Shown: positions 3,172-61,980 of the stretch, piece by piece
Layout: every line of letters begins with the position of its first letter
Position numbering within the stretch: position 1 is the first letter of the stretch
Assembly: GCA_030647355.1 (NCBI GenBank)
Contig: JAUSIS010000013.1
Coordinates: 177,165-241,164, forward strand
Direction of reading: 5' to 3'
DNA length: 64,000 nt
DNA from: a bacterium
Lineage (GTDB): Bacteria; Patescibacteriota; UBA1384; VFKW01
Made by a program: the position numbers and the translations under genes
Notes under the pieces: generated by a model
Databases searched by the model: none
What the model was told of the DNA's origin: nothing
The model's input: the letters and a program-made list of their open reading frames with translations, nothing else

Positions 3172-3337
3172 TGTCCTCTCCTCCTGGTTGACCGTATATT
3201 TTTGTCAAGGAACCACATTTCAATTCCTATCTTCCCACTGCCACACTATCATGAGTTTGTCTTAATGGAAACCCAATAATCATTTTTAAACTAAACCAAT
3301 ATGTTGTAGCCCAAGCTTTAGCTTATTTTTTCCAACC

Positions 3338-3368
3338 AAAAAGACGAAACTTCTCAATCTCGTCTTTT
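3338..3368. terminator. Putative hairpin terminator between the Cys-rich peptide gene and purF
   Basis: aaaagacg...cgtctttt inverted repeat (8-bp stem, large loop) with flanking A/T tracts, just downstream of the 3392..3583 minus-strand ORF. Confidence 0.35.
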
Positions 3369-3391
3369 CGTACTTCTTACTGCTTACTTTC

Positions 3392-3583
3392 TTACTGCTT
3401 ATCTTTGTAGCACTCGCATTCGCATTCACCGGTCGTGCAACATTTGCATTGGCACTGGCAGCGTTTCCCTAGATCGCAAACATTGCCTACATGCTCTAGT
3501 TTCTCGTCCACTTCCGGCTTTCTATTTCGCAAAAAGCCCAATATCTCATCCAATTTAGCCAGAATCTCCTCGTCTTTATCCAT
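3392..3583 (-). CDS. Small cysteine-rich protein (metallothionein-like or RiPP-precursor-like), 63 aa
   Basis: Strong SD (AGGAGG). Acidic helical N-terminal half (MDKDEEILAKLDEILGFLRN) then 11 Cys in the last 28 aa (CDLGKRCQCQCKCCTTGECECECY). 52 nt downstream of the VanW gene on the same strand. Confidence 0.5.
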   Translation of the reverse strand: MDKDEEILAKLDEILGFLRNRKPEVDEKLEHVGNVCDLGKRCQCQCKCCTTGECECECYKDKQ

Positions 3584-3634
3584 ATGCCTCCTGATAATTA
3601 TTTACTCTCTAACTATAACACAAACGTCAATACC

Positions 3635-6174: not shown

Positions 6175-6408
6175 TTATTCTCCCCTCAAAATCTCCTGCA
6201 AAACAGCCCTTGCCAGATTTTCCCGCCTCTTTTCCATCTTTTTATCACAAATGAGTTCGCTGTAGATCGCATCGCCTTCTTGAGCATCTTTATCCAAAAA
6301 ACGCCTCGGCACTACCAATTCTTGCCCCTCATACAAAAGCACCGCCTTTGCCCCCTCAAATCTATCTAAGATGAAATATAATTCTTTTGAATTAATTCTT
6401 TGGGACAA
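6175..6408 (-). CDS. DUF3006-like small protein
   Basis: 77 aa. Pattern ILDRFEGAKAVLLYEGQELVVPRRFLDKDAQEGDAIY resembles the DUF3006 family (IDRFEG..AVLE....VPR..LP..AKEGD). Confidence 0.45.
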   Translation of the reverse strand: MSQRINSKELYFILDRFEGAKAVLLYEGQELVVPRRFLDKDAQEGDAIYSELICDKKMEKRRENLARAVLQEILRGE

Positions 6409-18560: not shown

Positions 18561-18664
18561 ACCTCCGTTGTTTTTTAGTAAAATCGCTGCGACTTTACTG
18601 AGCGGTTGACTTTCTCAAGATCGTCAAGTAAAATCCAAATAGAACATAAAAAATAAAATATATG

Positions 18665-18800
18665 TCTTATCAAGAGTGACGCTAGGGAATTGGCCCAGTG
18701 ATCGTCCAGCAACCTTAAATCTAGTAGCTTATATGCTTACTGCTTACCAGCTTACTAACTTATTCGGTGCTAAATCCAAGCCCCAGAGGCAAGATAATAC
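18665..18800 (+). promoter_or_regulatory. SAM-I (S-box) riboswitch in the metK leader
   Basis: tcttatcaagag / gctagggaattggcccagtgatcgtccagcaacc / ggtgctaaatcc / gataa match the SAM-I consensus P1-P2-P3 and P1 closing. The P3 loop carries a copy of the cttactgcttaccagcttac dispersed repeat. Confidence 0.75.
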
Positions 18801-18856: not shown

Positions 18857-20023
18857 ATGGAAAGAACACTTTTTACGTCTGAATCGGTTACAGAGGGACA
18901 CCCCGACAAAATGGCTGACCAAATTTCCGATGCGTTGCTTGATGCCCTTCTGGAAAAAGATGAAAAATCCAGGGTGGCAATCGAAACGCTTCTTACTAAT
19001 GGAGTCTGTATCATTGCCGGAGAAGTCACTACCAACGCCTATGTAGATATGGCAAAAATCGCCCGCAAAGTAATCAAGGAAATTGGTTACAATGGCTGCG
19101 GCTTCCATCATGAAACAAGCGGAGTCATGACAGCCATTAAAGAGCAATCTTCCGATATTGCCCAAGGTGTTGACAGCTATGTCAAAACTGAAAGCGGTAA
19201 GATCGTCAGAGAAGATCTCGAGCATCTGGGCGCCGGCGATCAAGGATTAATGTTCGGATACGCCTGCAATGAAACGCCCGAGCTGATGCCCCTGCCAATA
19301 ATTCTCGCTCAACGGCTATGTCAAAAATTAGCATCCGTACGTAAAAAAGGGACTATTACCGGCTTAAGACCAGACGGTAAATCGCAAGTTACCATCGAGT
19401 ACGTTGACGACAAACCAAGCAGAATCCACACTGTACTCATTGCCGCCCAGCACGACCCATATAAAGACATCAAAAAACTCCGCAAAGAAATAACCGATAA
19501 AGTCATTAATCCCGTGCTAAAATCTTATGGACATCGGATAGATTCAAAAACCAAGATTTATATCAACACAACCGGCAAATTTGTCATTGGCGGACCGGAA
19601 GGCGACACCGGCTTGACCGGCCGTAAAATCATCGTTGACACTTACGGCGGCTATGCTCGGCATGGCGGAGGCGCTTTCTCGGGCAAGGATCCGTCCAAAG
19701 TTGACCGCTCCGGCGCCTATGCCGCCAGATGGGTAGCCAAAAGCATCGTCGCTTCGGGATTAGCCGAAAAATGCGAGGTTCAATTGGCTTATGCTATAGG
19801 TAAACCGGAACCGCTTTCTATCTATGTTAATACTTTCCAAACTAGTAAAAAGACTGACGAAGAAATAATTAAAAAAATCTCTGACAACTTCGACTTAAGG
19901 CCTGGCATGATTATCAAAAACTTAGGACTAAGACGCCCGTTATACCGCCAGTGTGCCGCTTATGGCCACTTTGGTCGTCCGGAACTAAACCTCCCATGGG
20001 AAAAAGCTAAAAAAATTAGATAG
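18857..20023 (+). CDS. metK: S-adenosylmethionine synthetase
   Basis: 388 aa. [13 protein letters not shown] and [16 protein letters not shown] motifs. RBS aaaggag. Confidence 0.95.
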
Positions 20024-21147: not shown

Positions 21148-21420
21148 ATGAATTATCAAAAATACACTTGGTATAATCGAAACGCAAAACTAGACAACCC
21201 CGAGACAATCCATCAAGTACTGTCATTTGGGAAAATTGATGAGATCAAGAAGATGGAACACATGCTTGGGTTAGAACAAATCACGCAAGTATATTTAAAA
21301 TATCCAAAAAATATTTATTCCCGACCGGTTTTCGCCTTTATCAACAAATATATTCTCAAAAACAAGGAGCCCATAGATGAGCGAAAATATCTCAAAAATA
21401 CATCTCGAAATCTTGAGTAA
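21148..21420 (+). CDS. Hypothetical small protein, possible antitoxin partner of the AbiEii-like gene
   Basis: 90 aa. Overlaps the downstream nucleotidyltransferase gene by 44 nt. No recognisable motif. Confidence 0.3.
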   Translation: MNYQKYTWYNRNAKLDNPETIHQVLSFGKIDEIKKMEHMLGLEQITQVYLKYPKNIYSRPVFAFINKYILKNKEPIDERKYLKNTSRNLE

Positions 21421-22039
21421 ACAGCAACAAGAAGTTCTGTTAAAACTCCAGCCGGTCCTAAAAGATTTCGTCCTCGGCGGCGGTACGGCGTTGGCGCTAC
21501 AGATCAAACATCGGCAATCTTTCGATTTCGATTTCTTTACTCTAAAACCAATTGATAAAAATCTACTGGAGAAAATTAGTCAACTCGGTTTTTCGTCAAC
21601 TGCGCCAATATTTGATAGCGTTGATGAATTAACTCTGATTATTGACAATGAAATCAAAATAACCTTTTTGTCTTATCCGTTTTCTAAAATATTTAATCTC
21701 GTTTTTCTAGATCAAAACATCCAAACATTCTCCCTCTCCGGCCTTGCAGCCCAAAAAGCTTATACAATCGGTAGGGGTGGAGTCTGGCGCGATTATTATG
21801 ATATTTTTACCTTACTTCGCCACAAATTTTTTACTCTAAAGGAAATCATCGGATTGACCCAGAAAAACTACGGTGACATTTTTAATCCCAAGCTGTTTTT
21901 GTCGCAGCTGGTCTATTTCGAGGACATTCAGGATTACTCCATTGAGCCAATCAATAATAGCTTAAACCCAATAGCTAGTAACGAAGTTAAAGCTTTTTTA
22001 GAAGAAGAAGTAGAAAAATATCTTGAAAGCATCAAATAG
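21377..22039 (+). CDS. AbiEii/AbiGii-family nucleotidyltransferase (type IV toxin-like, DUF1814)
   Basis: 220 aa. N-terminal FVLGGGTALALQIKHRQSFDFDFF matches the LKGGTAL...R.S.DIDF motif of AbiEii nucleotidyltransferases. Confidence 0.6.
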   Translation: MSENISKIHLEILSKQQQEVLLKLQPVLKDFVLGGGTALALQIKHRQSFDFDFFTLKPIDKNLLEKISQLGFSSTAPIFDSVDELTLIIDNEIKITFLSYPFSKIFNLVFLDQNIQTFSLSGLAAQKAYTIGRGGVWRDYYDIFTLLRHKFFTLKEIIGLTQKNYGDIFNPKLFLSQLVYFEDIQDYSIEPINNSLNPIASNEVKAFLEEEVEKYLESIK

Positions 22040-40400: not shown

Positions 40401-42458
40401 TTAACGTAATTTGAATATAACAACACTGTTATCATGGTATATTGAATGTGATAAGTAATCAGCAGCAAAATATTTATATCTGTTCTTATAATCGTTCCGA
40501 TCGAGATATTTTGGGCTACCAATAAATTGAAGTTTTTTAAATCTTTCAAGTGAATATATCAGATAAACCGAACTATTCATATTTGTAATGCTCTTTTCCT
40601 CTATCTTTGTCTCTTTCCTGGAAATCACTTGACCAGATTTATCATAAGTCAGAATTACAATCCTATTCGGCACTCCATCATCTCTTATCATGCTATCATA
40701 TTTCTCAATTGCCTTTAAGCTAAAGACGTTAAATTTCGAATTCATATCAATTATGGGTATATTTACAAAATTTCGTTCACTATAGGTAGCTATCCCTGTG
40801 CTATGCATTTGAGTTGAAACTAGCACTGAATCTTTCGGAGTGTTTTGTTTGATAAAATTAATTGCCGAAACCTCTTTCCTAGAAAACAATATCCCACGAT
40901 TAGCGGATAAATAAATAATTGCAGAAGTACCAAAAAGAATAACAAACAGCATGAGAACAATTAGGGCTTTTCTTACCCATGGCAAACGATACTCAAAAAG
41001 TTCTAAAAACCTACCAATTAAGAGTACAAAAATTATATCAATCCCAAGACCTAAGAAGATCCATGCTCTCTCTGGTAAAAAAGCAAATGTTGAAATTCTT
41101 GGATATATTTCTGCAATGAAATAAAAAAGTAGTGTAAAAAACATTAACGGAAGATATGGTACCCATCCTCCAATTACATTCTTTCTTTTAATACCTAATT
41201 TTTTAGAAGCAAGAAATATTATTCCAAATAAAAATACTGTAAATAAAAAGGCTAAAGCCCCTAAATACGCATACCAAAATAGACCTTTTGTTCCAGGATA
41301 ATTAAAAACTATCCCATCTGGGTTCAGATAATGATTCACATACCACCAGCGCCAATGCAAACCTGAATTTAATATATCCGTAAAAGAAGGAAAGACCGAT
41401 AGTACCATTTTCAACTTAGAAAGAATATTTAGAATAATTAAATATGGGGAAACGACAAGAAAAATAATAATTAGTTTCTTAAAAAAAGTTAATCTATTTT
41501 TATTAAAAATTTCAATCTCATACAAAAGAAGGCCTATTAAACTCGTAAATAAGATTACAAAACCTAATTCATGATAAAGAATACTAACAATACCTAAAAC
41601 AACCGATGACAAAATCATTTTGAGATCATGATTTTTAAGACCAATGATTGAAAAAATAAGCATAGAAATTGAAAATAATAAAATGAAACTCTGCGGAATA
41701 CTGTATTGAATTTGAAACACCAAATAGGGTGCCGAGAGAAATAATAATGAAAATATTAGATAAGTCGACTTGCCCTTCAGAATATATTTAGTAAGCAAGG
41801 CAGCCGGTAGTAAAAATGATGACATGACAACCGTAGGTAATACATATTGTAATATTGAAAAAACTGATATACCGCTTGCATAATGAACAAGCAATATGAA
41901 CGGTGTAAAGATTGGTCGTCTCTCCAGCACTGGCTGAATAATTGTGCCCATTTTAATCGATTGTTCAATAGTTCCAGCAAGAGTATATGTATCATCGCCC
42001 GGGAAAAAGGGGTAAATTAACCATGAAACAAGATTAATTAAAAACGGGAATGCTAAAATCAGGTAAAATATTAAGTTTTCTTTTCTTGTACCAATTCTTT
42101 TTGGAACATGAATATTATCAACTTTTTGAAACTTAATTATAAGAAAAAGTATAACAGTTATTAAGACAAGTGCAAAAATCTGATTAGCTGGGGTGTAAAC
42201 TTTCGAGATGATCGAAATTACTACCTCCACAATTGTTAATATTGCGATGGAAACTGGTAGCACTGCTATCAAATTGAATGGTTTTACAAAATATTTATCG
42301 ATATTTAAAAAAGATGAAACAAGCAGTCCTGGAATTATGAAAATAAAAAACAAGCCAACGATATTCAAAAAAAATCCAAAATGAAAAAACTTAAAAATAG
42401 CCAAGCTTAAAAAATAAAGAAAAATTAGCGCAATAAAAATTTTATTATTTTTAACCAT
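40401..42458 (-). CDS. Large polytopic membrane protein, putative GT-C-type glycosyltransferase
   Basis: 685 aa. About 13-15 N-terminal TM helices then a roughly 200-aa soluble C-terminal domain. Genomic neighbours are GT2 and Dpm1-like genes. Confidence 0.45.
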   Translation of the reverse strand: MVKNNKIFIALIFLYFLSLAIFKFFHFGFFLNIVGLFFIFIIPGLLVSSFLNIDKYFVKPFNLIAVLPVSIAILTIVEVVISIISKVYTPANQIFALVLITVILFLIIKFQKVDNIHVPKRIGTRKENLIFYLILAFPFLINLVSWLIYPFFPGDDTYTLAGTIEQSIKMGTIIQPVLERRPIFTPFILLVHYASGISVFSILQYVLPTVVMSSFLLPAALLTKYILKGKSTYLIFSLLFLSAPYLVFQIQYSIPQSFILLFSISMLIFSIIGLKNHDLKMILSSVVLGIVSILYHELGFVILFTSLIGLLLYEIEIFNKNRLTFFKKLIIIFLVVSPYLIILNILSKLKMVLSVFPSFTDILNSGLHWRWWYVNHYLNPDGIVFNYPGTKGLFWYAYLGALAFLFTVFLFGIIFLASKKLGIKRKNVIGGWVPYLPLMFFTLLFYFIAEIYPRISTFAFLPERAWIFLGLGIDIIFVLLIGRFLELFEYRLPWVRKALIVLMLFVILFGTSAIIYLSANRGILFSRKEVSAINFIKQNTPKDSVLVSTQMHSTGIATYSERNFVNIPIIDMNSKFNVFSLKAIEKYDSMIRDDGVPNRIVILTYDKSGQVISRKETKIEEKSITNMNSSVYLIYSLERFKKLQFIGSPKYLDRNDYKNRYKYFAADYLSHSIYHDNSVVIFKLR

Positions 42459-44584: not shown

Positions 44585-45988
44585 ATGGATAAAATCAAAT
44601 ATCTTCTCGAAAATAAAATAATTTATTACTTGATTCTCGCCTGTTTCCTTGTTGGACTTCTTTTTCTTGTTTATCAATATGCCTTACTAACAAATTTTCC
44701 TATCGGCGATGATCCTGCCATTCATATCATATACGCTAAAACCTTATCTTACTCCCAAATTTGGCAACAAATTATTTATCCGCTACCACTTATTATATTT
44801 AAATATCTTCATAACCTCACATCAATTGAATACCCAAAACTCTTTACCTTACTAATCCCAACCTTCCTACTGTTTTCGGTTATAGCTATAAGCATTTACA
44901 CATATGGAATTAAAAAAAACATCCTCATCCCAATTACCGCCGCCATCCTTTTTTCAACTGCTAGGTGGACTATCGATGGATTGAGAATGGGATTGCTCGC
45001 AGAAACCTTCGGTTGGGTCATTTTACTGATTACTCTGATTGGATTGTCAAGACAAAATATCATAATTACTCTTATTGGCAGTATCCTATTGCCTTTTTCT
45101 CATCCTTTTTCCACCGTTGTCTATACTCTCATATTTTTACTTTATTTTATCATCTCAATTAAAAACCCCCTTGAACGAAAATTTTTATTCACCATTGCAG
45201 GTGCTTATTTAGCTTTATTTCTACTGTTCCATTTTTTAAAACCGGAACTCATCGATCGTTTTGTAAATTTTTCCAACCCTGAAGTCCGCGGCTGGGGAGA
45301 ACGCAGTTTCATAAATGTTATCACCGGCGAAGCTCCTTACCGATTCCTTATCCCATTAGTTTCTTTGATCGGTATTATCGTTTCATTTAAGGATTGGAAG
45401 AAACCCGTTATAAAAATATCCTACTTATTATTACTTGTTGGAATGTTTTTTTCTTTCAATCATCTCTTTGGAATGCAATTTATTGTTTTCCGTTTCTATC
45501 CTTATCTGGAAATGGGAATGATCATTTTCGCCGCCATCGGTTTGAACTATCTCATCACAAACCTCAAATATAAATCTACTCCCGCCTTATTATTAACTAT
45601 CATATTTTCCCTAATACTTGCTGCTCCAAATTTCCACATCAATCGCTCCGGTATCAAAATACAAGCTCATGATGTCAGCGCCAAAGCAATCATGCTTCCC
45701 GCTGACCAAGCCGCAATAGAATGGATCGACAAAAACACGCTGCCGACCGACACCATCGCCACCGATATCCGTCATTCTATCTGGATAACAGCGTTAGCCA
45801 ATAGAGCAGCTTTTGATTATCAAAATATCTATTTCGACAGTGTTTTATTAACAAAAGAACCCGATCCAAACTTATTAACAGCCAAATATATCTATTATCC
45901 AATTGGCCACACCATTCCTGAAGAGATAACCCAATTTTACAAACCCATCTTCTCTCAAGACGGTGTCACAATCGAGGTTAAAAAATGA
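44585..45988 (+). CDS. Polytopic membrane protein, putative GT-C-type glycosyltransferase
   Basis: 467 aa, many TM helices. Divergent from the Dpm1-like GT2. Confidence 0.4.
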   Translation: MDKIKYLLENKIIYYLILACFLVGLLFLVYQYALLTNFPIGDDPAIHIIYAKTLSYSQIWQQIIYPLPLIIFKYLHNLTSIEYPKLFTLLIPTFLLFSVIAISIYTYGIKKNILIPITAAILFSTARWTIDGLRMGLLAETFGWVILLITLIGLSRQNIIITLIGSILLPFSHPFSTVVYTLIFLLYFIISIKNPLERKFLFTIAGAYLALFLLFHFLKPELIDRFVNFSNPEVRGWGERSFINVITGEAPYRFLIPLVSLIGIIVSFKDWKKPVIKISYLLLLVGMFFSFNHLFGMQFIVFRFYPYLEMGMIIFAAIGLNYLITNLKYKSTPALLLTIIFSLILAAPNFHINRSGIKIQAHDVSAKAIMLPADQAAIEWIDKNTLPTDTIATDIRHSIWITALANRAAFDYQNIYFDSVLLTKEPDPNLLTAKYIYYPIGHTIPEEITQFYKPIFSQDGVTIEVKK

Positions 45989-60852: not shown

Positions 60853-60888
60853 CTGACCCTGTCCTCTGCCACCTGTCTTCTGGATTTG

Positions 60889-60975
60889 CGGTGAGGGTGG
60901 GATTCGAACCCACGGAGCCCTTACGAGCTCAACATCTTAGCAGGATGCTGCCTTCAACCTCTCGGCCACCTCACC
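60889..60975 (-). tRNA. tRNA-Ser (anticodon GCU), class II with long variable arm
   Basis: Reverse complement GGTGAGGTGGCCGAGAGGTTGAAGGCAGCATCCTGCTAAGATGTTGAGCTCGTAAGGGCTCCGTGGGTTCGAATCCCACCCTCACCG. Anticodon loop CT-GCT-AA, GTTCGAATC T-loop. No encoded CCA. Confidence 0.85.
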
Positions 60976-61980
60976 ATATGAATCCAAATACTTCTTAATA
61001 TGTTTAGGATTGTGACTTCCTATTTCTTGAAAATATTTTCTAACATCCTTGGTATCATACAATCTTAAATCTCCACGACAATCTACCTTAGGATGAATAC
61101 CAATCTGCTCTAAAATTATCTTGACCGATTCTATCAAATTCACTGACCGTGAGCTAAATCCTATTTTATAATAAATGTATTGCTTACCTCTCACGGAATA
61201 TCTATGCTTGTACACACATCCATCTGTATCAACCAACCCCCTAACACAAGCTAACGAATATTTCATATCCTTCTTGATCCATTCCGGAATATCAATTTGA
61301 TGTTTAACCTTATTACCCTTAACCAATCCATTCTTTAATAAATACGCTACTAAATTTTTTCTAGAAACCTGAATATTTACTACGGAATTTCGAATTATTT
61401 CGCTGGGCTGAATTCTAAAAAGTTTTATCATCAATTGACAAACATATTTTGCATATTCCCGATCGTCAACCCGATTTAAAGTGATTGTAACCTGATAATC
61501 TGTAATTCCACCATCACCAATCAGTATCCCAAACATTTCTGCTAAATTCACACTTTTTTTGGGGAACAAGACTATTTTTGGACAGCTTATGCTATTTGTC
61601 GAAAAACGCCCTTTGGTTAGCCACCATTCCTCCCACCCTTTTCTCCTTTTCTCCGGATCAGTACAAATTGTTCCATATTTTCTGATTGTTGTCTCTGCAC
61701 CTAATCGGGCAGCTTTTTTTGTTGACCAAAAAGCCGGACGAATTTCAACATCATCTGGTATTTTTATTCCCATATGGCTAACCAACTTATCAACCGCCTT
61801 CTCCGTCATCGAAAAACGCTCCCTCTTCCAATCTGTCAAAGTCCGAACTCCAACTTCGCAGAATACAGACAATTCTAAATTTGACCCAAACACACCCATT
61901 GCTCTGTTTAAAAACTCTGCCTGCTTCCCCTTTAGGAATAACACGCGATTAGAATAATCTTTTTTAATCAATTCCGCCAT
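60937..61980 (-). CDS. LAGLIDADG-family homing endonuclease (double-motif)
   Basis: 347 aa. Two LAGLIDADG motifs (FGILIGDGG and VRGLVDTDGCV). The 3' end overlaps the 5' half of tRNA-Ser(GCU) by 39 nt. Confidence 0.8.
   Translation of the reverse strand: MAELIKKDYSNRVLFLKGKQAEFLNRAMGVFGSNLELSVFCEVGVRTLTDWKRERFSMTEKAVDKLVSHMGIKIPDDVEIRPAFWSTKKAARLGAETTIRKYGTICTDPEKRRKGWEEWWLTKGRFSTNSISCPKIVLFPKKSVNLAEMFGILIGDGGITDYQVTITLNRVDDREYAKYVCQLMIKLFRIQPSEIIRNSVVNIQVSRKNLVAYLLKNGLVKGNKVKHQIDIPEWIKKDMKYSLACVRGLVDTDGCVYKHRYSVRGKQYIYYKIGFSSRSVNLIESVKIILEQIGIHPKVDCRGDLRLYDTKDVRKYFQEIGSHNPKHIKKYLDSYGEVAERLKAASC

Follow-up and report, generated by a model that had tools for sequence, protein, structure and literature searches.

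An undescribed and very narrow protein family, comprising about ten sequences from Saccharibacteria-like bacteria, is defined by a real, translated gene for a 63-aa protein, which occupies a conserved position beside a gene encoding a VanW-domain protein. The N-terminal helical head of the protein is under strong purifying selection and is better conserved than the VanW neighbour; its cysteine-rich tail is hypervariable, and is predicted to be disordered. A cytoplasmic two-module protein, in which a docking or oligomerising helical head carries an expandable metal-thiolate tail, is tentatively favoured as a model, with a chance of being correct that falls somewhat short of even. The features on which the analysis is based are reported in Table 1. 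The window, here and in the following, is the whole 64-kb stretch of DNA which was analysed; its GC content is 40.6%.

Table 1. Features of the small-protein locus and of its conserved neighbours, with their positions in the window.
Feature	Position	Strand	Details
Intrinsic-terminator-like hairpin	3337..3370	-	15-bp stem, 21 nt past the small-ORF stop, followed by a U-tract
Small-protein CDS, 63 aa	3392..3583	-	stop codon 3392-3394; ORF list and translation
Cys-rich tail, aa 36-63, CDLGKRCQCQCKCCTTGECECECYKDKQ	3395..3478	-	9 Cys, 5 CxC, 1 CC
N-terminal conserved domain, aa 1-35	3479..3583	-	acidic start, predicted helix 3-21, Pro23 kink, predicted helix 23-33
Shine-Dalgarno AGGAGG	3587..3592	-	3 nt 5' of the small-gene ATG; read from the sequence
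Candidate extended -10 box TGTTATAGT	3612..3620	-	in the 51-nt VanW/small-gene spacer; read by eye
Membrane-anchored PG_binding_4 + VanW protein, 671 aa	3635..5650	-	Pfam; VanW E 5.9e-37
DUF3006 gene	6175..6408	-	Pfam; conserved order DUF3006 - VanW - small gene

Translation of the ORF from its ATG start (MDKDEEILAKLDEILGFLRNRKPEVDEKLEHVGNVCDLGKRCQCQCKCCTTGECECECYKDKQ, 63 aa) gave exactly the sequence quoted in the first-pass annotation of this DNA, and a protein database search revealed an identical entry, the NCBI MAG protein Q7S37_04955 ('bacterium'). The strong Shine-Dalgarno sequence and the terminator, which the annotation had assigned to the gene, were both recovered. A GGAG-type Shine-Dalgarno sequence is found at the equivalent place in all eight aligned small-gene loci, as AGGA in two of them. 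The hairpin located beyond the stop codon has a folding energy of -18.3 kcal/mol (z = -4.24; none of 200 shuffled sequences folded equally well), and an analogous terminator hairpin is present in the L001 homologue (-17.3 kcal/mol, z = -4.0); a simple terminator scan did not call the hairpin of the window. From the putative -10 box we infer that the gene may possess its own promoter within the spacer. TGnTAxxxT-like boxes occur at a comparable distance in L001, L004 and L009, and a looser one in L006; a full sigma-70 promoter was not called in the 51-nt spacer by a consensus scan. No Rfam element was found at the small-gene locus. As a separate observation, a 15-nt unit (reverse complement AAGCAGTAAGAAAGT-like) is present in 2.1 copies at 3374-3406. 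As the repeat runs across the small-ORF stop codon, 'KQ-stop' occurs a second time immediately downstream; this repeat may be a trace of a change in tail length.

Relatives of the protein were collected by a protein search, followed by growing alignments, against sets of 5.8 billion and 1.84 billion proteins. Besides the 63-aa protein itself (P0001), only about nine relatives (P0002-P0010) were detected, all of them metagenomic; one, P0005, is located in a Candidatus Saccharibacteria MAG (locus L004). The 145-aa database entry for P0009 (L011 97-534 / L012 69-506) is a call reading through stop codons: under code 11 its locus encodes a 53-aa family member, ending in CDCGCDHC. Selection was evaluated by pN/pS on a core of 23 codons, ILAKLDEILGFLRNRKPEVDEKL, for the eight loci with available DNA. 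In this core pN ranges between 0 and 0.22, versus 0.58-1.27 for pS. The comparison of L006 and L007 revealed 11 synonymous changes and no non-synonymous ones, in genomes whose VanW proteins are only 62% identical. Core identity is 17-23 residues out of 23, versus 57-63% for the VanW neighbour protein in the same genome pairs. Low pN versus pS, the conserved Shine-Dalgarno sequence and the hairpin of L001 together indicate a translated gene under strong selection; since the family is so small, these statistics rest on few lineages. On the basis of the same pN/pS values, a spurious or antisense ORF was rejected. The annotation had argued against an AT-rich spurious ORF from a codon repeat ('gcattcgcattc', the antisense of GAATGCGAATGC, encoding E-C-E-C), which Tandem Repeats Finder did not report; the conclusion stands, on the evidence from selection on the head.

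Searches in Pfam, NCBIfam and PHROGs revealed no family matching the small proteins. For P0001 no Pfam or NCBIfam match was obtained at E <= 1, metallothionein families included, and for the other members the matches stayed below threshold and concerned unrelated families, with no metallothionein family among them. A sequence-profile search of the PDB returned only noise (E > 0.5), and Foldseek found 0 matches in the PDB for the AlphaFold2 model, a two-helix model being uninformative for such a search. Relatives were likewise absent from a phage collection searched by tblastn, from IMG/VR viral contigs and from JGI metagenome contigs, which leaves a phage origin unsupported.

The head is characterized by a helix-Pro-helix motif, I-x-x-KL-x-EIL-x-x-L-x-x-RKPEVD-x-KL, fifteen positions of which (I7, K10, L11, E13, I14, L15, L18, R21, K22, P23, E24, V25, D26, K28 and L29) are invariant in eight sequences. 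AlphaFold2, run on the family alignment, modelled the first helix with a pLDDT of about 84 and the second, following the kink, with a value of about 71. The acidic, helical 'leader-like' character attributed to the N-terminal half in the annotation was thus recovered, with a net charge between -2 and -4; this is also the nearly invariant part of the protein, contrary to what had been expected to be conserved. The acidic head contains no hydrophobic segment and no signal peptide, so the protein is probably cytoplasmic. The invariance of charged residues suggests that the head provides a specific interface, either for self-association or for a partner. The hydrophobic moment of helix 1 is reached by 12% of shuffled sequences, a difference which is not significant, and amphipathicity was therefore not used as evidence.

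The VanW protein encoded upstream also shows a weak G5 match below threshold, and its gene stops 51 nt short of the small-gene ATG; gene order, strand and domain are as the annotation described them, except for the gap, given there as 52 nt. VanW domains have been shown to be peptidoglycan L,D-transpeptidases (PMC11348318), and the product of this gene is probably one of them. Eight related loci provide usable DNA on the upstream side of the small gene, and in seven of them a VanW homologue is present there. In L004, L006, L007, L008 and L009 its identity ranges between 57 and 84%; in L002 the C-terminal end of the VanW gene was recognized by eye and, weakly, by a tblastn match of 16 residues, and in L001 its proline-rich C-terminal end was seen by eye only. 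For P0010, no VanW gene is present in the 1.2 kb of upstream DNA. The Saccharibacteria locus L004 reproduces the order DUF3006, VanW, small gene of the window and has pyrG nearby, and its pyrG product begins almost identically to the one encoded in the window. On this basis the window is assigned to a Saccharibacteria-like CPR bacterium. Between VanW and the small gene, L006 and L007 carry insertions of one to three unrelated genes. A single copy of the small gene, orthologous in its chromosomal position, is present in every locus examined. Conservation of the ORF, or at least of its cysteine pattern, in syntenic regions had been proposed in the annotation as a check of the gene: the ORF is kept downstream of VanW in seven other loci, under purifying selection, and the cysteine pattern is retained only in its first residue, the remainder being hypervariable.

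All 9 cysteines of the protein, previously counted as 11, are contained in the last 28 residues, where they make up 32% of the sequence. Given the 1.0% Cys found in the long ORFs of the window, at least 9 Cys in 28 residues are expected with a binomial P of ~7e-12, far beyond chance; the other ORFs of the window contain at most 5 Cys per 28 residues. AlphaFold2 assigned no structure to residues 36 to ~55 (pLDDT < 50), and a short, low-confidence helix to residues 57-61. All family members have a Cys opposite C36 in the alignment, if a one-residue indel is allowed, and this invariant Cys is always found five or six residues past the KL of the head. Two subfamilies may be distinguished: at this place the first, made up of the 63-aa protein, P0002 and P0003, has the motif xVGxxC, and the second, which includes the other members, has A/M-x-x-C-x-C. 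Across the family the tails range between 14 and 83 residues and contain 1 to 22 Cys, 0-10 CxC and 0-2 CC; the P0002 homologue, for instance, has 78 aa and 11 Cys, and P0003, P0005 and P0006 carry merely 1-2 Cys. The tails of 10 members have 0-2 aromatic residues (one Tyr in the tail of the window protein), 0-5 Ser plus Thr, and many Asp, Glu and Lys; in several of them His is located beside Cys, as in CDHC, CGHDHKHE and CAHVHDKGC. In the longest tail, that of P0008, a 36-nt unit is present in 2.1 tandem copies, which indicates that tails grow by tandem duplication. The existence of members with only 1-2 Cys in turn indicates that the extended tail is dispensable for the core function, the selected core being the head plus one Cys.

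The favoured model accommodates these features as follows. The acidic helix-Pro-helix of residues 1-35, with its invariant hydrophobic a/d-type positions and several invariant charged residues, would most likely serve for self-association or for docking onto a conserved partner. The second module would start at the invariant Cys and consist of a disordered, metallothionein-like CxC/CC tail, interspersed with Glu, Asp, Lys, Gly and some His, in which soft metal ions such as Cu(I), Zn(II) or Cd(II) are most likely bound in metal-thiolate clusters. With metal bound, the tail could buffer, store or hand over the metal, or scavenge oxidants. Its capacity would be set lineage by lineage through tandem duplication and deletion, and such tuning would account for the range from 1 to 22 Cys. 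The composition of the tail, the disorder prediction, the duplication found in P0008, the similar module of a 759-aa protein and the lack of RiPP genes nearby (both described below) are the reasons for preferring this model. Against it stand the lack of homology to metallothionein families, the members with 1-2 Cys and the fact that metal-homeostasis genes (P-type ATPase, CsoR/ArsR-type sensor) were not found among the scanned ORFs of the window, nor was anything of the kind among the neighbouring genes scanned in L004, L006 and L007; a conserved head joined to a hypervariable tail is, moreover, also the signature of RiPP precursors.

By definition metallothioneins are small proteins rich in Cys, and those of bacteria commonly have His among their ligands (PMC10612145). 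The 63-aa protein resembles metallothioneins, such as the fungal Cu-thioneins (e.g. yeast Cup1) or the bacterial SmtA/BmtA and MymT, in its small size, in the presence of both CxC and CC, in the Cys content of the tail, in the near lack of aromatic residues, in the occurrence of some His and in being predicted to be disordered without metal, as apo-metallothioneins are. The metallothionein-like spacing noticed in the annotation therefore stands as an analogy, unaccompanied by homology to any metallothionein family in Pfam or NCBIfam. With Cup1 a literal CQCQC string is shared, and BLASTP aligned 8 identities out of 15 at a pairwise E of 0.006. The BLASTP likeness to Cup1 and to a mammalian metallothionein is compositional only. 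Further differences are that Cys positions other than the first are not conserved among the homologues, some of which have only 1-2 Cys, and that the conserved part is a helical domain without Cys, absent from metallothioneins.

Several metallochaperones carry variable metal-binding tails, which are His-rich in HypB, SlyD and UreE and contain vicinal Cys in ArsD. They share with the small protein the combination of a conserved folded or docking domain with a low-complexity tail of metal ligands, whose length varies between species and which is dispensable in some. In contrast to them, the domain of the small protein comprises only about 30 residues, the ligands are Cys and not His, and no gene for a cognate metalloenzyme or pump is linked to the small gene.

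Part of the same evidence would also fit a small regulator or adaptor, a reading which is unlikely, yet carries some weight. The function would then reside in the head, which would recognise a conserved partner; candidates are the VanW-type L,D-transpeptidase, through its basic N-terminus on the cytoplasmic side, and other components of envelope synthesis. The invariant Cys and the tail would together form a switch responding to redox state or metal. The VanW linkage, which persists in 7 of 8 loci even where genes have been inserted, points in this direction, as do the invariant charged residues K10, E13, R21, K22, E24, D26 and K28 on the surface of the head, consistent with a specific interface, and the members with 1-2 Cys, in which the minimal unit is the head plus one Cys. 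The acidity of the head may also be set beside the very basic N-terminus of the VanW protein (MAKKKVKKEPKKQ...). On the other hand, the linkage may simply be a gene order that a single clade has inherited, DUF3006 and pyrG being syntenic as well, and it does not extend to the 1.2 kb of upstream DNA of P0010. The VanW catalytic domain is, in addition, extracytoplasmic, and the small protein lacks an export signal.

The alternative of a RiPP precursor, in which the helical head would be the leader for a maturase encoded elsewhere in the genome and the Cys tail the core, modified to thioethers, thiazoles or disulfides and then released, is improbable. Precursors of the Nif11 and NHLP types have a conserved head and a variable tail, and can be unlinked from their maturase. 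The small protein behaves likewise, as its head is helical, acidic and more conserved than a flanking housekeeping-type gene, its tail is free in length and sequence, and the shorter tails, CVCDPKDKE for instance, have a length that is normal for cores. A conserved helical N-half followed by a hypervariable Cys-rich C-half, encoded by a small gene with its own Shine-Dalgarno sequence and terminator, is also what is seen in Nif11/NHLP prochlorosin-like and SCIFF/ranthipeptide precursors. Of the RiPP layout suggested in the annotation, the conserved head and variable tail are the part which found support; the accompanying remark that no radical-SAM or lanthionine synthetase gene is nearby was confirmed and extended. 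Within the 64-kb window, Pfam scans covered the ORFs of 120 aa or longer; neighbouring genes in L004, L006 and L007 were scanned as well. No radical-SAM, YcaO, LanM/LanB/LanC, MNIO, peptidase-ABC exporter or RRE protein was detected among these ORFs of the window, and no RiPP maturase, protease or exporter among the scanned neighbours in the three other loci. All the genes scanned are housekeeping genes, polysaccharide genes or unknowns; those of the window include pyrG, purF, H+-pyrophosphatase, guaA, pyrB, purC, metK, ahcY and a polysaccharide cluster.

Additional features of the window were recorded in the course of these scans. The surface-polysaccharide/sugar-nucleotide cluster is very large (~14500-58100), and contains many GT2 and GT4 glycosyltransferases, two Wzy_C O-antigen-ligase-like proteins, two flippases, rml genes, a GDP-mannose dehydratase and a FkbM methyltransferase, together with several large ORFs lacking a Pfam match, e.g. 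40401-42458 and 44585-45988. A SAM (S-box) riboswitch (18664-18800, plus strand, 50.4 bits) is located directly 5' of metK (18857-20023), and an ORF for an AbiEii-type nucleotidyltransferase toxin (21377-22039, plus strand) lies between the genes for a pfkB-family kinase and for S-adenosylhomocysteine hydrolase. On the minus strand, an ORF with a LAGLIDADG_3 homing-endonuclease-like domain (60937-61980) overlaps, by its last ~39 nt, the 5' part of tRNA-Ser(gct) (60888-60975).

Other properties of the family also argue against a RiPP precursor. No precursor or leader family (Nif11, NHLP, SCIFF, etc.) was matched at E <= 1 in NCBIfam and Pfam, and no conserved GG/GA cleavage motif is present. 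By inspection, the region preceding the Cys reads 'HVGNV' or 'EVGTR' in 3 members and, without Gly, 'MAVxC' or 'KMLxC' in the others; a 'VGN' motif is confined to 3 members and absent from the other subfamily. The tails are very poor in Ser/Thr and very rich in Asp, Glu and Lys, one of them reaches 83 aa with 22 Cys, and each locus examined carries a single copy. A broader proposal is considered quite improbable: the head would be a leader whose maturase is encoded elsewhere in the reduced genomes of these Saccharibacteria, and the family would represent Cys-based ribosomal natural products of a new class, which episymbiotic CPR bacteria produce with cores that are hypervariable.

A module similar to the small proteins forms the C-terminus (LLAKLDEILAKLDEILDAIKNHKVEVD...CECNCG; more fully, LLAKLDEILAKLDEILDAIKNHKVEVDVTGKVTCECNCG) of a 759-aa helical-repeat protein from a Melainabacteria MAG (L005 3889-6168, plus strand), which also counts against a RiPP precursor: if the module is homologous, the head would be an autonomous module and not a leader peptide. 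The match has a tblastn E of 3e-6 among pattern candidates and a pairwise BLASTP E of 7e-9, but only 0.24 database-wide. The 759-aa protein gave nothing over threshold in Pfam, NCBIfam and PHROGs; a DnaJ gene is located downstream of its gene. An XRE-type HTH protein, P0012, ending in EEIIAKLDEILALLKKRK (L010 166-504, plus strand, ending in HEEIIAKLDEILALLKKRK-stop), is identical to helix 1 of the family at 14 of 18 positions and was treated as a chance similarity, its database E being 4.2; such a match would fit the use of helix 1 as a reusable dimerisation helix.

The idea of a Cys-codon-rich regulatory leader ORF acting by attenuation, or of a spurious or antisense ORF, retains a negligible chance: the ORF is short and enriched in a single amino acid, a terminator hairpin comes after it and it is located upstream of purF in the window, but the downstream gene varies by locus and is convergent in L001, L002, L004, L008 and L009, the Cys-rich part is the unconserved one, no Rfam element is present and it is the amino-acid sequence of the head that is under selection, so that attenuation is effectively refuted.

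Returning to the model of a docking head with a metal-thiolate tail, bacterial metallothioneins are few and phylogenetically patchy, and CPR bacteria, Saccharibacteria included, possess tiny genomes and live on the surface of the bacteria that serve as their hosts; to our knowledge, nothing metallothionein-like has been described for Saccharibacteria or other CPR bacteria. The impact of the finding is limited by the very narrow distribution of the family, about ten sequences among 5.8 billion proteins. In terms of function, the family most likely adds a new variant in architecture to the small Cys-rich proteins that bind metal, and no new principle. If the model is true, an invariant 30-residue helical module joined to a size-adjustable metal-thiolate tail would define a new small-protein family and a new architecture in bacterial metal or thiol handling, and would provide a compact natural scaffold for metal-binding tags. 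The persistent adjacency to VanW is a concrete lead to a link with the cell envelope.
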